A DNA stretch of 11,177 bases. Source: Thermotogaceae bacterium (GTDB lineage: Bacteria; Thermotogota; Thermotogae; MWEM01). Below the pieces are notes generated by a model. That model worked only from the letters and a program-made list of their open reading frames with translations, was not told where the DNA came from and searched no databases. The stretch is taken from NCBI GenBank assembly GCA_012744415.1, contig JAAYCF010000138.1:1-11177 (forward strand), given 5' to 3'. Below are positions 1 through 10,325 of this stretch, one piece after another (position 1 is the stretch's first letter; the number at the start of each line of letters is the position of its first letter). A program made the translations under genes and the position numbers.

Positions 1-194
1 AAGGAGAAGTCGCTCGATTTTTACAAGTTTTGGAAAAATACGAAGTATCCCCGGAGATCACGCGCCAACGCTTGTACATCGAGACCATGGAAAAAGTGCT
101 CCCGAACTTCAAAACCCTGATTATACCTGGAGATAGCGGAAATACCTTGAAACTCCTGGATATTCAAGCCTTGCTAAACGGAGGGGATCTATAA
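1..194 (+). CDS. hflK: HflK (FtsH protease modulator, SPFH/band-7 family), C-terminal fragment; the 5' end lies outside the window
   Basis: Frame 3 translates as ...EITRQRLYIETMEKVLPNFKTLIIPGDSGNTLKLLDIQALLNGGDL*. The 'ETMEKVL' C-terminal stretch is typical of HflK. The TAA stop at 192-194 overlaps the hflC ATG (TAATG), which is the classic hflK-hflC arrangement. Confidence 0.7.
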   Translation, partial: GEVARFLQVLEKYEVSPEITRQRLYIETMEKVLPNFKTLIIPGDSGNTLKLLDIQALLNGGDL

Positions 195-1054
195 TGAAAG
201 CTTTTTGGTGGTTCCTCGGGATTTTCATAGCTTTTTTCGTTGTTTTCGCCTTAGTGACCTACACGGTTGATGAGACACAACTCGCGATCCGTTTGCGGTT
301 TGGAAAGATTATGGACGTCCACGATAAGGCCGGAATCCATTTCAAAGCTCCTTTTATCGATAAGATAGAAAAGCGGGACAAACGCATCATGCTTTATGAT
401 AGCGCCCCCGAAAGCGTTCTCACAGTTGACAAAAAGCGACTGGAAGTGGACAGTTTCATCTTGTGGCGGATCTCGGATTCGAAAACCTTCCTGGAAACGC
501 TCAACAACACGAATAGCGCGTTAAACCGAATCGATGACATCGTCTACTCGAATATCCGCGATTCCTTTGCCAAACTGACGATTTCGGACATCATCTCTGA
601 AGACCGCCGCGCCTATCTTGAATCGATTACGAACCAGACATCCGATATTTTAAAGACATTTGGCGTACAAGTAACGGACGTCAACGTAAAACGGACCGAT
701 CTTCCGGACACCAACGCGAAGGCGGTATTCGAACGGATGAAATCTGAACGGTATCAGGCGGCGGCGAAGATTCGAGCCGAGGGAGAGAAAGAGTATAAAG
801 AGATCGTGGCGAGAGCGGAAAAGGAATCTTCGGTCCTGATCGCAGAAGCGAATAAACAAGCGGAAGAGATTCGAGGGAAGGGAGACGCTTCGGCTTTGGA
901 GGTTTACGCCTCAGCTTTTTCGAAAGACCCGGAATTCTACCATTTCTGGCGCTCTTTGACCGCTTACGAATCCGTCTTTCAAAAAGAAGCCGTGGTGTTA
1001 CTGGACGAAAAGGTTGATTTTTTACAGTATCTCTTTTCACATAAAGCTGAATAG
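194..1054 (+). CDS. hflC: HflC (FtsH protease modulator, SPFH/band-7 family)
   Basis: 286 aa. There is an N-terminal TM anchor (FWWFLGIFIAFFVVFALV). Segments 'LEVDSFILWRISDSKTF' and 'ASAFSKDPEFYHFWRSLTAYESVF' closely resemble E. coli HflC ('IVDSYIKWRISDF', 'ADAFSKDPDFYAFIRSLRAYENSF'). An SD-like cGGAGGGG sits 7 nt upstream of the ATG. Confidence 0.85.
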   Translation: MKAFWWFLGIFIAFFVVFALVTYTVDETQLAIRLRFGKIMDVHDKAGIHFKAPFIDKIEKRDKRIMLYDSAPESVLTVDKKRLEVDSFILWRISDSKTFLETLNNTNSALNRIDDIVYSNIRDSFAKLTISDIISEDRRAYLESITNQTSDILKTFGVQVTDVNVKRTDLPDTNAKAVFERMKSERYQAAAKIRAEGEKEYKEIVARAEKESSVLIAEANKQAEEIRGKGDASALEVYASAFSKDPEFYHFWRSLTAYESVFQKEAVVLLDEKVDFLQYLFSHKAE

Positions 1055-1060
1055 GGAAAG

Positions 1061-1768
1061 ATGAGCGTCGGTTCGACCGCGGGTTCTTTTTTTTCCGTGC
1101 GGGACCCTATCCTTGGGCAGACTTCTCGGGGACAGGAAAGGATAGAAACGGAGGTCGTTATCCATCGATCGCGGTTTATCGGTTGTGCCGCCCAGGTTCA
1201 TACGAAAGAAGAAGTGACAGATTTTATAAAAACCGCGAAAACGAGACATCCTCAAGCGAATCATCACGTTTGGGCTTATGTGATCGAGACGAAAAGCGGC
1301 AGCTTTCATTTTTCAGATGATGGTGAACCGGGAGGAACGGCCGGTGCGCCAGTTTTCGGGGTCTTATCCAAGTATCGGCTGGAGAAGACGGCCCTTGTCG
1401 TAACCCGTTACTTCGGAGGCATCAAGTTGGGGATTAGCGGGTTGATCGAAGCCTATCGCCGGTCCGCAGAAGAGACGGTTATGACAGTCGGTATCGTGCG
1501 TTACCGTCTCTATCGACGATATGCCTGTTCTTTGGCCTATCACGATTGGAAAGGCTTCCGTCACTTTTTGTCCGCGCTTGACGTTCCAGAGATTGGGATT
1601 ACAGTTCGATATGCCGAAAAGGTTGAGATTCTGGTCTCGATCGCTGAGGAAAAAGCGAGCCGACTCAGGGAAGAATTGGATCGTTACGTCGGGATGCGGA
1701 AGATCACAGGATATTCGGAAGGTGAACCGGGTTTTGCCCCGGATGAATCTGAAGCGGACACTCTTTAG
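1061..1768 (+). CDS. yigZ: YigZ / IMPACT-family protein (UPF0029 N-domain plus a C-terminal DUF1949-like region)
   Basis: Motifs 'IHRSRFIGCAAQV', 'HHVWAYV', 'FSDDGEPGGTAGAPV' and 'VVTRYFGGIKLGISGLIEAY' match the IMPACT/YigZ signature (E. coli 'KKSRFIT', 'HHCVAWV', 'FSDDGEPAGTAGKPM', 'VVVRYYGGILLG'). The gene begins 6 nt after the hflC stop. The exact start is uncertain; the ATG at 1061 has a very short SD spacing. Confidence 0.8.
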   Translation: MSVGSTAGSFFSVRDPILGQTSRGQERIETEVVIHRSRFIGCAAQVHTKEEVTDFIKTAKTRHPQANHHVWAYVIETKSGSFHFSDDGEPGGTAGAPVFGVLSKYRLEKTALVVTRYFGGIKLGISGLIEAYRRSAEETVMTVGIVRYRLYRRYACSLAYHDWKGFRHFLSALDVPEIGITVRYAEKVEILVSIAEEKASRLREELDRYVGMRKITGYSEGEPGFAPDESEADTL

Positions 1769-1783
1769 CGGAGCGTATAACGT

Positions 1784-4327
1784 ATGAGCGTATGGGAAGC
1801 GTTGGTATTCAGTCTCTCGTTATTAACCTCGGATCTGTTGATTCTCAACGGAATCTCAAAGTTTGATCTCAACAGGAAGACATCATTCTCTTTTATCCTG
1901 ATGTCTTTCGTTACCTCGATCGGATACGGACTCCTCCGATATGTCACAATTATTCTATTTGACGATCTCTATCTCGTCACCAACATTTTGTTTTTTTTGA
2001 ATAATCTCTGGTTGTTGGTATTCTTTCGAAATGCGGTCGTTCAGTATAATGATCACATTCCGATCGGCCGATATTTTGTTCTGTCGATTATTTGCTTCCT
2101 CGTCCCCATCTCCTTCGGTCTGTTTTTCAACCCGATGGGCAACTTCGAAACCCTAATGGTCCAAATGTCCTACATGTTGGGCGTTTTACCGATGGTCGTC
2201 TATTCTTCGATGCTGGCGGGGGTTTCCGTCGGCTCGGCGGTGTGGGGGATCATCATCGCGTGTTTCTTGTTTTCTGTGGACTTCTTTCTGCGTTTCGGGT
2301 TTTTTCGGATCCTACAAACGGAATTCCAAGAGGTGGTTTCGGAAACTTTTCGCGTCGTGTCGATCTTGCTGATTAGCATCTTCGGTCACTACGGCCAACC
2401 GATTCCGCCGGGAAAAAATCGGGAGATCATCCCTGGCACGCAACGGTTAAACAATGTGTTCTTCGCCTTGATCGCGTTTTTTCCAGTTATGATCTTTTAC
2501 ACCGTCTTTTGGCAGGTCAATCTCAACGACCGAAAAATGCAACAAAAAGAGATTGAGCTATCGAAAGAAGTCTTTATGATTAGCAGCAAAATGCTGGAAG
2601 ACAGAATCGAAACCTACTCTCGGATCGTCAACGAAGTGAAGAATTCGGCGAATCTTGCCACGGCGCAATGGAAACTCAAGACTTTTTTGTTTACCGACCC
2701 CGAAATCGATGTCGCGCAGCTTCTAACCTCTTATCCGATCATGTACAAGAACGAGGAAGTGGTCTTCGAGAGGGGTCGCGTCACTTTCTATACCCGTACC
2801 GATCAAGGGTGGGGCATTAAACTTTCGGTGAACATGGAGACCCTGTACGCGCAATTCCCGCTAAACGACTCCCAAAGGTTCTACGCTTTCCTGAACGATA
2901 CGACGTTTTTGTACCCTCCGGGGAGACTAATTGAAGCGAACGCCCTTTTCACCAGTCTCGGAGAGAGAGACTATATCTTCGTGAATTCGATCAATCTCTA
3001 TGAAAAACCGTTTCTTACCTACCTCATATTCAGCACCTCTCCGATCAGCGTCAACATCTATACGCTCGCTTTCATGCTGGGGGCGATATTTATTCTGGTC
3101 TTAGTATGGTGGTTCTATGGTTTCTACATCCATAGTTGGGAGAAGACGGCCAAAGAGAAGTATTTCTCGTTGAATCAAGCCAAAGAAGAGTACGGGGAAC
3201 AGATTGGCCGTTTAGAAAGCTCTTTGAAACTCATGTCTGGAGACTTGCAGATTACGGCCGATAAGCTTGATCAGTTCAGTCGAACGGTGTACCAACTTAC
3301 CGATAGTTTCTCGGGCTTTGATTTCCAAAAAGGGCCGACCTTTGAGCTGAAACAGTTATACGATAAGTTGCTGTCGATTATGAACTGGGTCGAAGATATC
3401 CTCTTTTTCCAAAAAACGGAACCGAAAGGGAAACTTTTGGCTTTTTCAGGAGGCGAACCTGTTTTAACGGCGCTGCCTCCTTCTCTCTTTCAGACTCCCA
3501 AAGAACTGTGGGTTGGACAACTTTCCTTGGGCCTTCCCGAAGAAGATCGGGGGACCTCTTCGGAAGGGTTATCGCCTCTTCAGAAAAAGGTTTTAGCCTC
3601 AAAAACCATCTCAATCGACAAACGCGATCTGATCCTCCTTGTTTTATTGAAAAGCAGAGCTTATGATCCTTCCGATTACGAGTTTCATTTTTTGCGCACA
3701 CTGTTCAATATTTCCGAACTGTATTTAAAAATCTTTTATTCGACGAAACGCAACGAAACCATCTCCCAAAAGTATATCTTACTATCTCGGTTTCAGATGA
3801 GCCTACTTTCTCCCCAAACGGTCGAGGCTACGGGCGCGGTGGCGGTTAACCCGTCCAACATCGGCGACGGTACCCAGAAAGTCATTTCGGCCTTTATCTC
3901 TTTCTTAAGGAAAATATACCCGGAAGCTTCCTTATGGGGAGTACGAATCGGTCCTGAAGAGAAGCCCGAAGATCAAATGCTCTACTATGCCAGGAAACCG
4001 TCCCATCCTGATCCAGGCGGGAACGTCTCTTTGAAGATCGAAAGAAAACGCTTGGATGAAGAGTTACAAGAACGCTTTTCCGCTTCGTTTTCTCCGGCGA
4101 AACCGTTCATGGGAGAGATCAGCGAAAAAGAAGGGATCGCACCCGATTCCCATTCCCGGATCTACCTCCCGCTTTACGCCCGTTCCGAGCCGATCGTGGC
4201 GCTATTAATGGAGTTTTCGTTTTTTAAGGTGTTTTCCAATGTGGAGAAAGAATACCTCTTTTTTCTTTGCCAGATACTCGGAGAAGCATTCGACGCCGTT
4301 CATCATAGCGGAAAGGTTTCACGATGA
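1784..4327 (+). CDS. Polytopic membrane sensor-like protein of 847 aa. It has about 8 N-terminal TM helices, a ~155-aa soluble domain, a TM hairpin, a coiled-coil segment and C-terminal GAF-like region(s). No kinase, GGDEF, EAL or other output domain is recognisable.
   Basis: Hydrophobic stretches occupy residues ~5-246 and ~400-440. The heptad-like charged segment 'EKTAKEKYFSLNQAKEEYGEQIGRLESSLKLMSGDLQITADKLDQFSRTV' looks like a coiled coil. The C-terminus 'SRIYLPLYARSEPIVALLMEFSFFKVFSNVEKEYLFFLCQILGEAFDAV' resembles the end of a GAF domain. An earlier 'KRDLILLVLLKSRAYDPSDYEFHFLRTLFNISELYLK' suggests a second GAF-like unit. 'ggag' lies 9 nt before the ATG. Confidence 0.6.
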   Translation: MSVWEALVFSLSLLTSDLLILNGISKFDLNRKTSFSFILMSFVTSIGYGLLRYVTIILFDDLYLVTNILFFLNNLWLLVFFRNAVVQYNDHIPIGRYFVLSIICFLVPISFGLFFNPMGNFETLMVQMSYMLGVLPMVVYSSMLAGVSVGSAVWGIIIACFLFSVDFFLRFGFFRILQTEFQEVVSETFRVVSILLISIFGHYGQPIPPGKNREIIPGTQRLNNVFFALIAFFPVMIFYTVFWQVNLNDRKMQQKEIELSKEVFMISSKMLEDRIETYSRIVNEVKNSANLATAQWKLKTFLFTDPEIDVAQLLTSYPIMYKNEEVVFERGRVTFYTRTDQGWGIKLSVNMETLYAQFPLNDSQRFYAFLNDTTFLYPPGRLIEANALFTSLGERDYIFVNSINLYEKPFLTYLIFSTSPISVNIYTLAFMLGAIFILVLVWWFYGFYIHSWEKTAKEKYFSLNQAKEEYGEQIGRLESSLKLMSGDLQITADKLDQFSRTVYQLTDSFSGFDFQKGPTFELKQLYDKLLSIMNWVEDILFFQKTEPKGKLLAFSGGEPVLTALPPSLFQTPKELWVGQLSLGLPEEDRGTSSEGLSPLQKKVLASKTISIDKRDLILLVLLKSRAYDPSDYEFHFLRTLFNISELYLKIFYSTKRNETISQKYILLSRFQMSLLSPQTVEATGAVAVNPSNIGDGTQKVISAFISFLRKIYPEASLWGVRIGPEEKPEDQMLYYARKPSHPDPGGNVSLKIERKRLDEELQERFSASFSPAKPFMGEISEKEGIAPDSHSRIYLPLYARSEPIVALLMEFSFFKVFSNVEKEYLFFLCQILGEAFDAVHHSGKVSR

Positions 4328-4349
4328 GAGTTAATAAAAGGAGGGCGGC

Positions 4350-4895
4350 ATGAAACGCCGACGAATAGGAATCGTAATATTCTGGATGCTTGTACTGAGC
4401 GGAGTGTGTTTGATGGCCGCCGAGTACCGCACCTCTTTGCAGGCAGAGTTTCCAAATCGGGTGAAAGAGCTGGAAGCGATTCTGGGAATGACCATCGAGG
4501 AGTCCGTCGTCGTTGTAAAAGAGTTCTCAAGCGTCGAGGCCTTTACGCGCGAAACCGGCGCGCCCTATTGGATTCGAGGGTTCACGAACGCTTATCGGAT
4601 ATGCTTGCAGAGCCGGCATCTGTTAGGCGAATCCGTCTATCGGAGCCTTTTAGAACACGAATTGCTGCATTGGACGATTCGGCGGCAAGCGGCTTTTCCT
4701 CTCTGGTTCGAGGAAGGAGTCGTCTGTTTAATCACGGGAGAGTTGTCCGGTTACCGAGATATCCCCGTGATGAAAAACGTGGAATCCGTAGACCCGATTA
4801 CCTTGAAAAATCCGTGGGAAATGGTATCCTATTCATTGGGTTGCTTGGAAAAAGTGAAAGAAATCGTGCAGAAGCAAACGGAGGGGCGTCCATGA
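4350..4895 (+). CDS. Small secreted or membrane-anchored putative zinc metallopeptidase with an HExxH zincin motif resembling the Peptidase_MA_2 pattern
   Basis: 181 aa. The N-terminal signal or anchor is MKRRRIGIVIFWMLVLSGVCLMAAEY. In 'LEHELLHWTIRRQAAFPLWFEEGVVCLITGE' an HExxH is followed ~17 residues later by a W-x-E-E-G motif, the pattern of the Peptidase_MA_2-like gluzincin family. A strong SD (aAGGAGGg) sits 7 nt upstream. Confidence 0.6.
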   Translation: MKRRRIGIVIFWMLVLSGVCLMAAEYRTSLQAEFPNRVKELEAILGMTIEESVVVVKEFSSVEAFTRETGAPYWIRGFTNAYRICLQSRHLLGESVYRSLLEHELLHWTIRRQAAFPLWFEEGVVCLITGELSGYRDIPVMKNVESVDPITLKNPWEMVSYSLGCLEKVKEIVQKQTEGRP

Positions 4896-5644
4896 TTTAT
4901 CCGGTACCGACACATACTTATAAAAAAAAGCCGAAACGCAAAGTTCCATGGCTGTTGATTTTGATTCTCATCGCGATTGCGTTCGCTGTTTTTTTCCTTT
5001 TCTATACTCATAATCTTCTCTTCGACAGCAGCGATATGACCGAACCCGTCGTCGACTTTCTCTTTCTGATACAGGATAAAGAGGAAGTCTTCTTTATCCG
5101 GTCCAACAGACAGCAAAAAATCAGCTATGCCGTACAGATGCCCTTAAAAAGCTTTGAACCGATCCAAGCCGTATCTTTGGACCAATCGACACCGCAGGGC
5201 ATCTATAATTCGATAGAAAAGCTCTTTGGACGGGCTAATCGGAGTTTCTGGGCGACGATAGAGACCTCTGACTTCACCGTTCTCGCACAGCTCTCGAAGA
5301 ACGCGCCAGACGTATCCCAAACAGGCGCTTCAGCGCCTTCATATGACATTCATCACTTTATCGGATTAGTACAACAGATTGATCTATCCGTGATCGAATT
5401 TATTTTCTTTCCGAAGATGAAGGCGTTACAAAATATCTTTAAGATGGATAACTTCAATAATCGCTCCGCTTTTCGCTTGGTCGACCAGCTGAAAAATTAT
5501 GCCTATAAAGCCACGCCGGTGGCCTTTCTCACTAAAAACCCTGTTACGATCCGGTACCTAACCGATTCGGGAGAAGTCGAGGTGGAACGGTTTTATTTAG
5601 ACGATAAGAGTTTAAAGTCGATCAAGGAGTTTATGTCCCAATGA
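4892..5644 (+). CDS. Membrane-anchored (type II) hypothetical protein, possibly a catalytically degenerate LCP-like paralog
   Basis: The ATG at 4892 overlaps the upstream stop (ATGA) and is preceded by GGAGGGG. The product is 250 aa with a Lys-rich cytoplasmic tail and one TM (WLLILILIAIAFAVFFLFY). The segment 'QGIYNSIEKLFGRANRSFWATIETSDFTVLAQL' aligns by eye with the LCP core of the next gene ('NGIYKKYGVEALQRTIESLFDLSIARYAVVDYEVFEFL'), but the RxD and SIPRD catalytic motifs are absent. The longer ORF-track version (4406..5644) is an out-of-frame upstream extension and is not used. Confidence 0.55.
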   Translation: MIYPVPTHTYKKKPKRKVPWLLILILIAIAFAVFFLFYTHNLLFDSSDMTEPVVDFLFLIQDKEEVFFIRSNRQQKISYAVQMPLKSFEPIQAVSLDQSTPQGIYNSIEKLFGRANRSFWATIETSDFTVLAQLSKNAPDVSQTGASAPSYDIHHFIGLVQQIDLSVIEFIFFPKMKALQNIFKMDNFNNRSAFRLVDQLKNYAYKATPVAFLTKNPVTIRYLTDSGEVEVERFYLDDKSLKSIKEFMSQ

Positions 5645-6948
5645 TACGGAACAGCCAAAGGGGCGGCGGGGCTTTATTAGCGTTGCCTTCCATCCTTCTT
5701 TGCGCCTCTGTCACCGTGTTCTTCCTAATCTTGCCCGGTTTCTTGAGCGACATTTTTACAGGGTCCGACGACACAACCGCGCAAACGGGTAAGGCGTACT
5801 ATCTGATATTAGGTGTAGACGACGCGGCAGCGGGAGGCGCTGATCGAACAGACATGATCGGCATTTTGGGGATCCATTTTGAAACGAAAAAATCGATCTT
5901 TATAAGCATCCCACGTGACTTGATGGTATCGAACGTTTCAGCGGAACAACCGCCTTCGGCTACTTCCACCGTGAGCGACCTAATATCACAACCTCTCGTG
6001 AAGATTAACGGAATTTATAAAAAATACGGTGTCGAGGCGTTGCAAAGAACCATCGAATCTTTGTTCGACTTATCGATCGCGCGGTATGCCGTGGTCGACT
6101 ATGAGGTTTTTGAATTTCTGGGCGATCTTCTCGGTCCGGTTAAAGTGAATATACGAACCACTTTAGACTACGAAGACACGCAACAAAACCTGAAGATCCA
6201 TTTTGAACCCGGTATTCAGGAACTAAACGGGAAGCAGCTGTTGCTCTATATCCGGTACCGAAACGACCCGCTCGGTGATTTGGGCAGAATCCAACGGCAA
6301 AAAGAAGTCTTATTCAGTTTGCTCCAGTCTTTGAAACTGAAGAAAGAAACAGCAACGATCAACCGCGTCATTCAGGAAGTTTTGGGAAAGATCGAAACGA
6401 ATTTCGACGCCCTCGACTTGCTTTCTTTGTGGGGATATGCGGAGGCATTAGGTGAAATCGCGTTTTTAAACTTTCCCTATACGATCAACGCCAAAGGAGA
6501 TATAGAGATTTCCTCCGAAAAGATGAAGCAAGTGCGAGAAGAAATCATTCTGATGGAAGCGGTCCAAGAACCTTATGTTCCCCAGTTGATCTTAATCAAT
6601 GCCTGGAACGACAATGCTTATCAATTCTCCGTCGTGGAATACAATCAATGGACGGGGCAGGGGATCCGCCCTTTCATTATCGAAAAACGGCTCGTTAATG
6701 AAGCCGTGAAAAAGGTTGCCGAAAACCGTGATTTAGTGTGTTTTTTAACACGAGACACGGAAAAACAAAAGGATATTTCGGAACGTTATCAAAGGGTGTA
6801 CCCAGCACGCCCGTATTTAGCGATTTATCCTGATATCGGCGCCGCATTTTCATTTCAAGATTATCTATCCGTTGTCGATACGTTGATGAAAGCGAAGGCC
6901 GCTTTTCCTTTTCCCGCTGACGCTTTGATTATCAAAACGCACCCATAA
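5641..6948 (+). CDS. LytR-CpsA-Psr (LCP) family phosphotransferase-like protein with an N-terminal TM anchor and a ~190-aa C-terminal extension
   Basis: The ATG overlaps the upstream stop (ATGA). There is one TM (ALLALPSILLCASVTVFFLILPGFL). LCP hallmarks are present: 'YYLILGVDDAAAGGADRTDMIGILGI', 'ISIPRDLMV', 'INGIYKKYG', 'YAVVDYEVFEFLGDLLGPVKVNI', 'LNGKQLLLYIRYRNDPLGDLGRIQRQKEVL'. Confidence 0.8.
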   Translation: MIRNSQRGGGALLALPSILLCASVTVFFLILPGFLSDIFTGSDDTTAQTGKAYYLILGVDDAAAGGADRTDMIGILGIHFETKKSIFISIPRDLMVSNVSAEQPPSATSTVSDLISQPLVKINGIYKKYGVEALQRTIESLFDLSIARYAVVDYEVFEFLGDLLGPVKVNIRTTLDYEDTQQNLKIHFEPGIQELNGKQLLLYIRYRNDPLGDLGRIQRQKEVLFSLLQSLKLKKETATINRVIQEVLGKIETNFDALDLLSLWGYAEALGEIAFLNFPYTINAKGDIEISSEKMKQVREEIILMEAVQEPYVPQLILINAWNDNAYQFSVVEYNQWTGQGIRPFIIEKRLVNEAVKKVAENRDLVCFLTRDTEKQKDISERYQRVYPARPYLAIYPDIGAAFSFQDYLSVVDTLMKAKAAFPFPADALIIKTHP

Positions 6949-6961
6949 TAAGGAGGTCGGC

Positions 6962-8371
6962 ATGCTTCAGAAACAAGAAATGGAAGAGGTTTTAAGCATA
7001 CTACTCGAGGCGGGAGGGGATTTCGGAGAACTTTTTTTTGAAGACACGCGTTCCGCGGAAATGTCTATGATAGACGGCAAACTCGAGAAGGTCAACTCCG
7101 GAAGGATTTGCGGAATCGGGTTAAGAGCCTTCCTGAATACGAATGCGGTCTACGCTTATACCAATGATCTCTCCATCGAAAACCTGAAAGGGACGGCCCG
7201 GAGAATAGGTAAAGCGTTAAAAGGCCTGCCGAAACCCCAAGAACCGTTTATTCTCAACGAAAAACATTATGAAACGAAGCTGCCCGTTTTATTGCCCTTC
7301 GAAATCATTGAAAAACGAGAAAAAAAACACGTGATGCAAATGGCGAACGAAGGCGCGAGAACTTATGCGCCGTCGGGAAGTGCTTTAGCGGATTTGATCG
7401 GCCAGATAGAGGTCAGTTATTTGGAAAAGGATCAATATGTGCGGATCGCTAATACCGATGGAATGCTTACCGAGGATCGCCGAAGAAGGACCCGGCTGAC
7501 CACGAGGGTTATCGCGGCTGAAAACGGTCAAAAAGAGACCGGTTCGAGTTCTCCGGGATACGGAACAGGTTTCGAATTTTACAACCTCATCGACCCGAGG
7601 GAGGTCGGGCAAGAAGCCGCCCGTATCGCGCTTCGAATGATACGCGCGGACTACGCTCCTGCTGGAATGATGCCGGTTGTGATTGGAAACGGCTTCGGCG
7701 GCGTCATCTTTCATGAAGCGTGTGGGCATTCTCTTGAAGCGACGTCTGTCGCGAAAGGAGCGTCCGTCTTTTGTGGTAAAGTCGGGCAGAAGATTGCGAA
7801 TGACTGCGTGAACGCGGTAGATGATGGCACGATCCCGAATGCCTGGGGGACTAGCACCGTCGATGACGAAGGAACACCCACCCAAAGAAATCAGTTGATC
7901 GAAAACGGGATCCTAAAAGGATATCTGGTGGATCGTCTGAATGCCCGAAAGATGGGGGCGAATCCGACAGGAAGCGGTCGTCGCGAAAACTATACCTACG
8001 CGCCGACCTCACGGATGTCCAATACCTTCCTAATGCCAGGACAATCCATACCGGAAGAGATTATAGCCAACACCGAAAGGGGCTTGTACGCGAAGACGAT
8101 GGGTGGGGGTTCCGTTCAACCGACAACCGGCGAGTTCAACTTCGCCGTGCTAGAAGGGTACCTTATAGAAAAAGGACGGGTGGTGAAACCGGTACGCGGC
8201 GCTACCCTTATCGGGAAAGGCCATGAAGTATTGGAAAAGATCGATATGATCGGGAATGACCTTACGAGATCCCAAGGAATGTGCGGCTCCATTTCGGGGT
8301 CGATCCCGGCAGATGTCGGACAGCCGACGATCCGTGTTTCCGAATTGCTGGTGGGGGGGCGAAATACATGA
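6962..8371 (+). CDS. tldD: TldD metalloprotease (TldD/PmbA family, HExxxH)
   Basis: 469 aa. 'AGMMPVVIGNGFGGVIFHEACGHSLEA', 'GTPTQRNQLIENGILKGYLVDRLNARKMGANPTGSGRRENY', 'KPVRGATLIGKGHEVLEKIDMIGNDL' and 'VGQPTIRVSELLVGG' align almost motif-for-motif with E. coli TldD. An AAGGAGG SD sits 7 nt upstream. Confidence 0.9.
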   Translation: MLQKQEMEEVLSILLEAGGDFGELFFEDTRSAEMSMIDGKLEKVNSGRICGIGLRAFLNTNAVYAYTNDLSIENLKGTARRIGKALKGLPKPQEPFILNEKHYETKLPVLLPFEIIEKREKKHVMQMANEGARTYAPSGSALADLIGQIEVSYLEKDQYVRIANTDGMLTEDRRRRTRLTTRVIAAENGQKETGSSSPGYGTGFEFYNLIDPREVGQEAARIALRMIRADYAPAGMMPVVIGNGFGGVIFHEACGHSLEATSVAKGASVFCGKVGQKIANDCVNAVDDGTIPNAWGTSTVDDEGTPTQRNQLIENGILKGYLVDRLNARKMGANPTGSGRRENYTYAPTSRMSNTFLMPGQSIPEEIIANTERGLYAKTMGGGSVQPTTGEFNFAVLEGYLIEKGRVVKPVRGATLIGKGHEVLEKIDMIGNDLTRSQGMCGSISGSIPADVGQPTIRVSELLVGGRNT

Positions 8372-9735
8372 ACTTCGAAACCTTTAAAAACGCTGTCTTC
8401 GATATCGCTGCAAAAAAAGGCTTAAAAAACTACGAACTCTTCGGCATGGAACAGCGAGAATTTGAAATTAACTTTTTTGAAGGCGCGATCGAAGGTTACA
8501 AAGATGCCTCTTCCTCTGGGGCCAGTTTTAAAACGATCGTCGATGGGAAAGCAGGAATGAGTTTTACCGAAGTCTGGACGCCGGAAACAGCTGAAAAGAT
8601 CATCGACGATGCCTGCGAGAACAGCCAACAGGTTGACGCTTCGGATCCCGAGTTTATCTATGAAGGAAACGGTTCCTATCGCACTTTCCCGCCGTTTGAG
8701 GATCGATACGTGAAACTGCCGGTTGAGGAGAAGATCGCCTACGGCTTGGAGATGGAGAAGGCGGCGAAAGCGCATCATCCCTCGATCGTGAATATTCCCC
8801 ACTGCACCTATTTCGACGCGGCAGAGAGGTTTTACGTGAGTAATTCTCACGGGGTTCATTTGGAATGTGGCCGTGAAGGCGGAGGAGGGTACCTCGTCGC
8901 GGTCGCTTCAGACGGAAAAGCCGCGAAAACCGGTTTAGAGTTCGTCGCGCAGGAATCTCCTGTCGGTTTGGATTTTGTGACAATGGCGCAAAAAGCGGCA
9001 GAAAGAGCCCTGAAGAAACTCGGCGCAAAAAGTATCAAAAGCGGGAAATATCCGATTATCCTTGATTACAATATGGTCGGCGAATTGTTATCGCTTTTTT
9101 CATTTATGATCAACGCCGAAAACGTGCAAAAAGGGTTATCGCTGTTAGCTGGAAAGCTACATCAAGCGATCGTTTCTCCCGCGATCACTATCGTCAACGA
9201 ACCTTATATCGAAGGCGGAATCTCGAATATCCCTTTCGATGCTGAAGGCGTACCGACAAAGACGCTAACGATCGTACAGAACGGGATTTTGGAAACCTTT
9301 TTGCATCGCATCAAAACGGCTAAGAAGGATGGTGTTCCTCCGACGGGCAATGCGACACGAGGGCGATACAATCAAGCGCCGGCGATCGCTCCGCAAAATC
9401 TGTTGCTGCGCGCGGGTCCGCTCTCTTTGGAAGAACTGATGCGAAAGATGGGGGATGGCCTCTATATCACGGACCTGCAAGGGATGCACTCCGGCGCGAA
9501 TCCGTATTCCGGGCAATTGTCGCTCGCTGCGGAAGGCTTCAGGATAGAGAACGGAAAGATCGCTTATCCTGTAGAACAGATAACGATCGCCGGGAATGTG
9601 TTGGAACTATTCGGGAAAGTCGCCGGGATCGGGTCGGAGTCGAAGCTTTCGTTGCCATCAGGTAACTTTAGCGTTTATTGTCCTGATCTCTATTTTTCCG
9701 AAGCGGATATCGCCGGGACGGAATCTCCTTCTTGA
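8368..9735 (+). CDS. pmbA: PmbA/TldE, the partner subunit of TldD
   Basis: The ATG at 8368 overlaps the tldD TGA (ATGA) and follows a G-rich SD-like stretch (GGTGGGGGGG). The product is 455 aa. 'PFDAEGVPTKTLTIVQNGIL', 'GVPPTGNATRG', 'LEELMRKMGDGLYITDLQGMHSGANPYSGQLSLAAEGFRIENGKIAYPVEQITIAGNV' match the PmbA family. The ORF-track start at 8281 is an in-frame upstream extension inside tldD and was not used. Confidence 0.88.
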   Translation: MNFETFKNAVFDIAAKKGLKNYELFGMEQREFEINFFEGAIEGYKDASSSGASFKTIVDGKAGMSFTEVWTPETAEKIIDDACENSQQVDASDPEFIYEGNGSYRTFPPFEDRYVKLPVEEKIAYGLEMEKAAKAHHPSIVNIPHCTYFDAAERFYVSNSHGVHLECGREGGGGYLVAVASDGKAAKTGLEFVAQESPVGLDFVTMAQKAAERALKKLGAKSIKSGKYPIILDYNMVGELLSLFSFMINAENVQKGLSLLAGKLHQAIVSPAITIVNEPYIEGGISNIPFDAEGVPTKTLTIVQNGILETFLHRIKTAKKDGVPPTGNATRGRYNQAPAIAPQNLLLRAGPLSLEELMRKMGDGLYITDLQGMHSGANPYSGQLSLAAEGFRIENGKIAYPVEQITIAGNVLELFGKVAGIGSESKLSLPSGNFSVYCPDLYFSEADIAGTESPS

Positions 9736-10325
9736 AAAAAGTGGGGATAACCGGATCCATTGCTTCCGGAAAATCTGTAGTGAGTCGATACTACGAAAGA
9801 AAAGGATATCCGGTCGTTTACGAAGACGAGGTGGGACATCAAGCGCTTGCGGATCAACGAATCCTTAAAAAGATCATCTGTTTCTTTGGAAATGGGATTT
9901 TAGGCGCTCACGGCGAAATCGACCGGAAAGCATTGGGAAATATTGTTTTCTCTGATCCCGAGGCATTGCGTAGCCTGAACGCTATCGTCCATCCTTGGAT
10001 GATCTCTCAAACGTTGTCGCGTTTTTCGGCCTTAGAAGAAACACGTTATCCGCTTGTCTTTTTGGAAGCGGCGATTCTGTACGAAATGAGTTTAGACCGG
10101 CACGTCGATTCGGTTGTTTTCGTCGACGCGACTCAAAAAACCCGAATTCAACGCCTCATGACCTCTCGCGGTTATGACTTGGCTGAAGCGCAAAAGCGCG
10201 TGAAAGCGCAACGTATCGGACAATACAAAAAGAAAAGCGATTTCGTTATTCGTAATGAAGGCACGCTTGAATCACTATACCAACGATGCGACCGCCTCTT
10301 GAACGTTTTATTGGCAAACGGGTGA
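9732..10325 (+). CDS. coaE: Dephospho-CoA kinase
   Basis: There is a P-loop 'GITGSIASGKS' at the N-terminus, and the length (~195 aa) and overall pattern are CoaE-like. The start is TTG at 9732 overlapping the pmbA stop (TTGA); the in-frame GTG at 9741 is an alternative. Confidence 0.8.
   Translation: MKKVGITGSIASGKSVVSRYYERKGYPVVYEDEVGHQALADQRILKKIICFFGNGILGAHGEIDRKALGNIVFSDPEALRSLNAIVHPWMISQTLSRFSALEETRYPLVFLEAAILYEMSLDRHVDSVVFVDATQKTRIQRLMTSRGYDLAEAQKRVKAQRIGQYKKKSDFVIRNEGTLESLYQRCDRLLNVLLANG

Follow-up and report, generated by a model that had tools for sequence, protein, structure and literature searches.

A four-gene envelope unit of a Thermotogota operon encoding an LCP enzyme, a possible degenerate LCP paralog and a putative small zincin

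We analyzed an 11,177-nucleotide (nt) stretch of DNA from a Thermotogaceae bacterium (contig JAAYCF010000138.1, hereafter the window), in which three consecutive genes for predicted envelope proteins are joined by overlapping stop and start codons. The window contains a same-strand run of nine genes (194 to 10325) in the order HflC-like Band_7, YigZ/IMPACT, BIG, P1, P2, LCP, TldD, PmbA and CoaE, and a MaoC gene on the opposite strand. Four of the nine, all on the forward strand, are the subject here. BIG (1784..4327) encodes a polytopic membrane protein of ~847 amino acids (aa), as judged from its open reading frame (ORF) and hydropathy. P1 (4350..4895) encodes a 181-aa exported or membrane-anchored protein that resembles a minimal gluzincin, a type of zincin metallopeptidase. 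P2 (4892..5644, 250 aa from the ATG at 4892) encodes a type-II membrane-anchored protein. The fourth gene (5641..6948) encodes P3, a 435-aa protein predicted to be a LytR-CpsA-Psr (LCP) glycopolymer phosphotransferase. Our results suggest that these genes form two pairs, P2 with LCP and BIG with the zincin, rather than a single trio of P1, P2 and LCP.

An earlier note on this DNA had described P1, P2 and P3 as a trio with ATGA overlaps at 4892 and 5641, each protein having a single N-terminal signal or anchor. Both points were borne out. The ORFs and the sequence place a start/stop overlap at P1/P2 (4892..4895, context ccATGAtt) and another at P2/LCP (5641..5644, context caATGAta), both on the forward strand. 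Each overlap is 4 nt long, with the start codon on the preceding stop, and a GGAGG-like ribosome-binding site lies 5' of the start in all three genes. A Kyte-Doolittle scan found one strong hydrophobic segment per protein, always N-terminal (residues 6-24 of P1, 18-36 of P2 and 12-30 of P3). Such overlaps are usual in this operon and do not set the trio apart. The junctions TldD/PmbA (ATGA, 8368-8371) and PmbA/CoaE (TTGA, 9732-9735) also overlap by 4 nt. In all, the window has 8 same-strand junctions, of which 4 overlap in this way, and one of these 4 (PmbA/CoaE) joins functionally unrelated genes. The trio is part of a long operon of tightly packed genes, and an overlap is by itself hardly informative. 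A promoter and terminator scan of the nine-gene string gave no signal above that of shuffled controls and did not delimit the transcription unit.

We found that P3 is a canonical LCP enzyme, as had been proposed in the earlier note. P3 matched PF03816 (E=5e-31; 108.3 bits, cutoff 24.6) over residues 69-232 (nt 5845-6336, forward strand) and also matched TIGR00350 (98.3 bits, cutoff 62.3). LCP proteins have a short cytoplasmic tail, a single transmembrane (TM) segment and an exported catalytic domain (PMC2632651), and P3 has this topology: a short cytoplasmic tail, a TM segment at residues 12-30 and an exported LCP domain. The solved LCP enzymes MsrR, TagV, BrpA, TagU, TagT and Cps2A were all matched, the best E being 1e-20 with P3 alone as query and 2e-36 with a profile of its orthologs. 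The catalytic motifs are intact. Residues D60, D61, R69, D71, R92, D93, R205, R207, D209, R216, R219 and Q220 are invariant in six P3 orthologs that are only 31-34% identical to P3 of the window, and the D-D, RxD, PRD, RxRxD and GDxGRxxRQ positions align to the motifs of TagV, MsrR and BrpA. The domain is followed by a C-terminal extension of ~170 aa (residues ~265-435, window 6430-6945) that is conserved in the clade, with invariant residues such as P314, N320, F329, S330, F424, P425 and D427. The extension matched no family, including LytR_C. Judged by its sequence, P3 is an intact, membrane-anchored canonical LCP enzyme and a predicted glycopolymer phosphotransferase. LCP proteins have been reported in every sequenced member of the Thermotogae, where they form their own sequence cluster (PMC2632651).

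P2 had no match in Pfam, NCBIfam or the PDB, and a profile of its family also found none in the PDB. HMMER searches of 1.84 billion representative proteins found only 16 relatives of P2 (218-251 aa). Because these include 'hypothetical proteins' of Thermotoga maritima (AAD36714.1, THMA_1688), T. petrophila and Kosmotoga, we assign P2 to a Thermotogota-wide, phylum-restricted family. The earlier note had remarked that P2 looks like a catalytically dead paralog with the LCP fold. A direct BLAST comparison of P2 with LCP gave nothing significant. Profile-profile comparison (hhalign) gave a signal that grew with profile depth. With shallow profiles P was 0.26; with the 15-member P2 family against LCP it was 0.0072; and with the P2 family against an LCP profile of 12 sequences, four of them PDB enzymes, it was 1.2e-4 (probability 54%, 95 columns). 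Two P2 subfamilies independently yielded the same LCP alignment (P of 1.6e-3 and 7.9e-5), and an LCP profile made from PDB enzymes only also detected P2 (P=1.2e-3). The observed score of 38.9 was reached by none of 400 shuffles (0/400), in which column shuffling gave a mean of 14.4 (maximum 23.7) and block shuffling a mean of 16.4 (maximum 28.3). Reversed profiles and unrelated families scored 13-20.

The best alignment of P2 to LCP (P=7.9e-5) is colinear over 181 columns and runs from just past the TM anchor (residues 18-36) as far as the LCP core extends. It shows P2 without the RxD loop, with P-L-K in place of the PRD motif and with the whole hairpin that bears RxRxD deleted. No residue equivalent to a catalytic Arg or Asp is conserved over the 15-member P2 family. 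The AlphaFold2 model of P2 is poor, with a predicted local distance difference test score (pLDDT) of 48, and the description of P2 as a dead LCP paralog is for this reason plausible and unproven. The best reading is that P2 is a degenerate LCP paralog without catalytic residues, which we put at somewhat better than even; the evidence is of one kind, the comparison of sequence profiles. What stands of the earlier proposal is the profile-profile similarity (P from 1e-4 to 8e-5) and the missing catalytic residues, and what does not is support from a hidden Markov model (HMM) match or from the structure model.

P1 has the features of a small zincin. It contains the motifs HELLH (nt 4656-4670, residues 103-107) and WFEEG (nt 4704-4718, residues 119-123), both on the forward strand, downstream of the N-terminal signal or anchor that the hydropathy scan placed at residues 6-24. 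Residues H103, E104, H107, W119, E121, E122 and G123 are invariant in eight P1 orthologs, down to 35% identity, and H103, E104 and H107 are also kept in two distant relatives. HExxH is thus conserved among the homologs, as the earlier note had required of a zincin. The AlphaFold model of P1 is confident (pLDDT 89; predicted template modeling score 0.81). It has a small beta-sheet subdomain followed by HExxH in a helix (94-113) and EEG in the next helix (118-129), consistent with a zincin fold. In the model, E121 or E122 of WxEEG, on the helix right after the HExxH helix, is a candidate for the Glu that would serve as third metal ligand. Together, sequence and model show a gluzincin-type fold with an invariant HExxH...EEG predicted metal site and an export signal or anchor.

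P1 is a zincin of no described family. P1 of the window had no match in Pfam, NCBIfam or PDB sequences, and a PDB profile search with the P1 family also gave no match. The earlier note had likened the protein to Peptidase_MA_2 (PF13485). That family was seen below threshold in one of the eight orthologs (E=0.021), where the gathering score was not reached, and one distant relative (locus L029) scored 15.4 bits against it (cutoff 32.4). Tox-MPTase3 gave sub-threshold matches in two of the eight. The zincin assignment therefore holds at the level of motif, fold and clan, and membership in PF13485 does not.

A word-indexed search for relatives of P1 returned only seven, to which scans of genomes and metagenomes added others. 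The two distant relatives (L028, 1233-1745; L029, 145-699) are 34-35% identical and retain HExxH and P-x-WFEEGLVC. Both adjoin bacterial alpha-2-macroglobulin genes (bMG10 domain), the junction in L028 being a 4-nt overlap, and one of the two contigs comes from a high-GC organism outside the Thermotogota. Within these short contigs, no P2, LCP or BIG gene lies beside the zincin relatives. A weak DUF2300 match had pointed from P1 to E. coli YfaQ; we rejected this link, as neither HMM nor hhalign comparison supported it (P=0.15). YfaQ (L030; E. coli K-12, 2328148-2329797) has tandem DUF2300 domains and a terminal HEYLH motif, and is encoded in the yfaS alpha-2-macroglobulin operon. At one locus from a metagenome-assembled genome (L004, 7911-8420), the zincin ORF ends after 124 aa, directly past EEGLVC, and tblastn similarity runs on to residue 172. 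The truncation indicates a pseudogene or else a frameshift caused by an assembly error.

In BIG, the protein encoded upstream of P1, approximately 7-8 TM segments at the N-terminus are followed by ~180 extracytoplasmic aa, a further TM segment (~423-441), a coiled coil and ~340 C-terminal aa. A block of charged and aromatic residues in and around TM5-TM8 is invariant (W154, G155, D166, R170, E187 and R190, and further on W243, Q244 and N246), and orthologs were found down to 30% identity. BIG matched nothing in Pfam, NCBIfam or the PDB; over seven orthologs, Pfam gave no match at E up to 10. Kinship of BIG to the proteins encoded 3' of the LCP gene (L003, L007 and L012), or to a 426-aa protein encoded 5' in L009, was considered and rejected.

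We found that the conserved unit has four genes and not three. Synteny within the clade was determined by a profile scan of fetched loci, some of which are duplicate samplings of one lineage. The order BIG-P1-P2-LCP was present in the window and in 19 complete loci, with no exception; five more loci were cut by a contig end. The ~800-aa BIG always precedes the zincin, lying directly 5' of P1 in every clade locus with an upstream flank, and it is on this basis that we count four genes. Across the clade lineages, BIG, P1, P2 and LCP are 30-42% identical to their counterparts in the window, and HflC is 57-62% identical. In L003 each of the three junctions within the unit is a 4-nt overlap (BIG/P1 by ATGA), as are BIG/P1 and P2/LCP in L007/L008. 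The P1/P2 junction is without overlap in L005 and L007. Overlap at P2/LCP is also found in L003, L005, L007, L009 and L012, and in L032 the two genes share one base. The genes 3' of LCP vary among clade lineages.

Outside the clade, the neighbors of P2 are different. We counted these neighbors in eight distant loci (L009-L012 and L031-L034), taken as distant lineages. A gene for an HD-domain hydrolase lies directly 5' of the P2 homolog in all eight and a DUF503 gene is present in seven, and these DUF503-HD-P2 genes often have overlapping stop and start codons. An LCP gene lies directly 3' of P2 in three of the eight (L009, L012 and L032). P2 followed by LCP is thus found in two upstream contexts, BIG-P1 in the clade and DUF503-HD in these three loci. 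Zincin and BIG are absent from all eight. Because the distant P2 loci are without zincin and BIG, and the distant zincin relatives are without P2, LCP and BIG on their short contigs, the data suggest two pairs, P2-LCP and BIG-zincin. The co-conservation expected of the trio was seen in the window and the 19 complete clade loci, and gives way in distant lineages, where the relatives of P2 and of the zincin occur apart. As a separate observation, the linkage of HD to P2 is tighter than that of P2 to LCP and is unexplained for an exported P2; the HD protein lacks both a signal and a TM segment, indicating that it is cytoplasmic.

Based on these results we favor a reading, with a probability of roughly 45% for the whole, in which the LCP enzyme and its partner P2 are one module and the zincin and BIG are a separate envelope module. 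The LCP enzyme would most likely attach to peptidoglycan a secondary cell-wall polymer carried on undecaprenyl pyrophosphate, and in Thermotogota the SLH domain of the toga tether Omp-alpha is likely to bind this polymer. Because the SLH domain of Omp-alpha binds peptidoglycan-associated secondary wall polymers, and CsaB and SLH occur in the phylum (bioRxiv 10.1101/2022.09.22.508938; 10.1101/2021.05.31.446380), such a polymer is the obvious candidate for the LCP substrate. P2 may have arisen by tandem duplication of the LCP gene followed by decay of the active site. It could now be a non-catalytic partner (a scaffold, a substrate holder or a regulator) that is made together with LCP by way of the overlapping stop and start.

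In the same reading, the zincin and BIG would make up another envelope module, specific to this lineage and located 5' of the P2-LCP pair. The most likely substrate of the zincin is an exported protein or peptide, perhaps wall peptides or the loop of BIG that is exported, and the zincin probably has no direct role in the LCP reaction. Since BIG is the constant companion of the zincin, it is the most economical candidate for its partner or substrate. LCP enzymes can glycosylate proteins too, as does Actinomyces LcpA (PMC6381275), so the zincin might conceivably process a protein acceptor of the LCP enzyme.

Several results weigh against the reading of two modules. The hhalign probability for P2 and LCP is only 54-61% overall, and, when used by itself, the C-terminal half of the alignment of the 15-member P2 family (residues 137-250 in P2 of the window) has no similarity to LCP. 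P2 does not adjoin an LCP gene in five of the eight distant lineages, Thermotoga included, and where the two genes do adjoin, tandem origin alone could explain it. The upstream genes for IF-2B, TatD, HflK, HflC and YigZ are as syntenic as the trio in L005-L008. Because of this, clade synteny cannot separate function from shared descent and is weak functional evidence. Finally, Foldseek found no significant match of the P1 model in the PDB, and P1 is therefore a distant, minimal member of its clan.

The equal synteny of the upstream genes is also what would be expected if these were independent envelope proteins encoded in a compact, vertically inherited housekeeping operon, with overlaps that reflect genome compaction only. 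The overlaps at half of the window junctions, including that between the unrelated PmbA and CoaE, are consistent with such packing, as are the nine-gene string unbroken by any promoter or terminator signal above chance and the occurrence of P1 and P2 relatives elsewhere, each without the other two genes. However, P2 and LCP also adjoin each other in L009, L012 and L032, where other genes lie upstream, BIG and P1 are never apart, and the four genes stay together while the downstream genes vary among lineages. In addition, all four products are envelope proteins, whereas the flanking genes encode cytoplasmic ones. We regard packing alone as possible, if on the unlikely side. The model of the earlier note, in which all three proteins make up one heteromeric complex, with the zincin trimming the acceptor peptide or anchor used by LCP and the dead paralog as a scaffold for both, seems to us very unlikely. 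It would fit the trio being unbroken in the window and 19 complete clade loci, the export or anchoring of all three proteins at the same membrane face, and the P1/P2 and P2/LCP overlaps in the window and L003. But the zincin is missing from 8 of 8 distant P2 lineages, 3 of them with an adjoining LCP gene; its own distant relatives pair with alpha-2-macroglobulin genes and not with LCP; it is bound at least as tightly to BIG; and the P1/P2 overlap is not found in L005 and L007. A dedicated complex of the three proteins has no support other than their conserved adjacency in one clade: the unit has four genes, it is part of a nine-gene housekeeping operon, and overlaps are common there.

P2 might also not derive from LCP at all. 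It could be an unrelated, Thermotogota-specific membrane protein that weakly resembles LCP through a shared beta-beta-beta-alpha-beta-alpha topology, and its true partner could be the HD hydrolase or the DUF503 protein, which are its neighbors in the distant loci. We consider this unlikely. The profile-profile score is 7-10 standard deviations over the shuffle nulls and the same result came from independent subfamilies and from the PDB-only LCP profile. The 181-column alignment is colinear and starts directly past the TM anchor in both proteins. A direct partnership of the HD protein with an exported domain is itself unlikely, because the HD protein is cytoplasmic. At the other extreme, the two-module reading could be extended to a phylum-wide, unrecognized pseudo-LCP (the family of T. 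maritima AAD36714.1) that pairs with an active LCP to attach the toga-tethering polymer, joined here by the zincin and BIG to give a four-part machine for envelope assembly or sensing. We think this distinctly improbable as a whole.

LCP enzymes are much studied in Gram-positive bacteria and hardly at all in Terrabacteria that bear a toga or an outer membrane, whose outer layer is thought to be anchored by way of SLH domains to polymers bound to the wall. P3 shares with TagT/U/V, MsrR, Cps2A and BrpA the N-terminal TM anchor, the exported PF03816 domain and the catalytic positions. It differs from them in its family-less C-terminal extension of ~170 aa and in being coupled to a putative degenerate paralog, and its host is a toga-bearing diderm. 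The gluzincins of clan MA(E) (M9 collagenase, M30 hyicolysin/lugdulysin, M1 aminopeptidases/LTA4H and PF13485) are the nearest comparison for P1, which has a mature part of only ~155 residues and no accessory domains; the spacing from HExxH to Glu is longer in M1 than in P1. For P2, there is an analogy with pseudoenzyme partners such as EnvC, a catalytically dead LytM factor that activates amidases. P2 would likewise be encoded beside an active envelope enzyme, lie on the same side of the membrane and have lost its catalytic residues. It differs in fold and chemistry, and it is not linked to LCP genes in Thermotoga.

We found no description in the literature of a pseudo-LCP or of an LCP translationally coupled to a degenerate paralog. 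At the level of annotation, what appears to be new is a Thermotogota-wide LCP-like family without an active site, a zincin family without a Pfam model, and an uncharacterized 800-aa membrane protein tied to the zincin. If P2 is indeed a conserved non-catalytic LCP paralog, it would represent an accessory factor of a kind new to the LCP family. The installation of the toga tether's ligand would also become open to experiment, because Thermotoga has a P2 homolog that could be deleted. With no Pfam model, and with LCP as a neighbor here and alpha-2-macroglobulin elsewhere, the zincin is a candidate for a new family of periplasmic metallopeptidases.

The region as a whole is part of a long same-strand operon of envelope and housekeeping genes from an uncultured Thermotogota lineage of digesters and activated sludge. 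The GC content is even along the window (0.43 to 0.54). The closest genomes are metagenome-assembled and labelled Thermotogae or Thermotogaceae (e.g., ADurb.Bin062), and an activated-sludge contig of 245 kb (UOWO01000015.1) is 100% identical to the window across the zincin gene.

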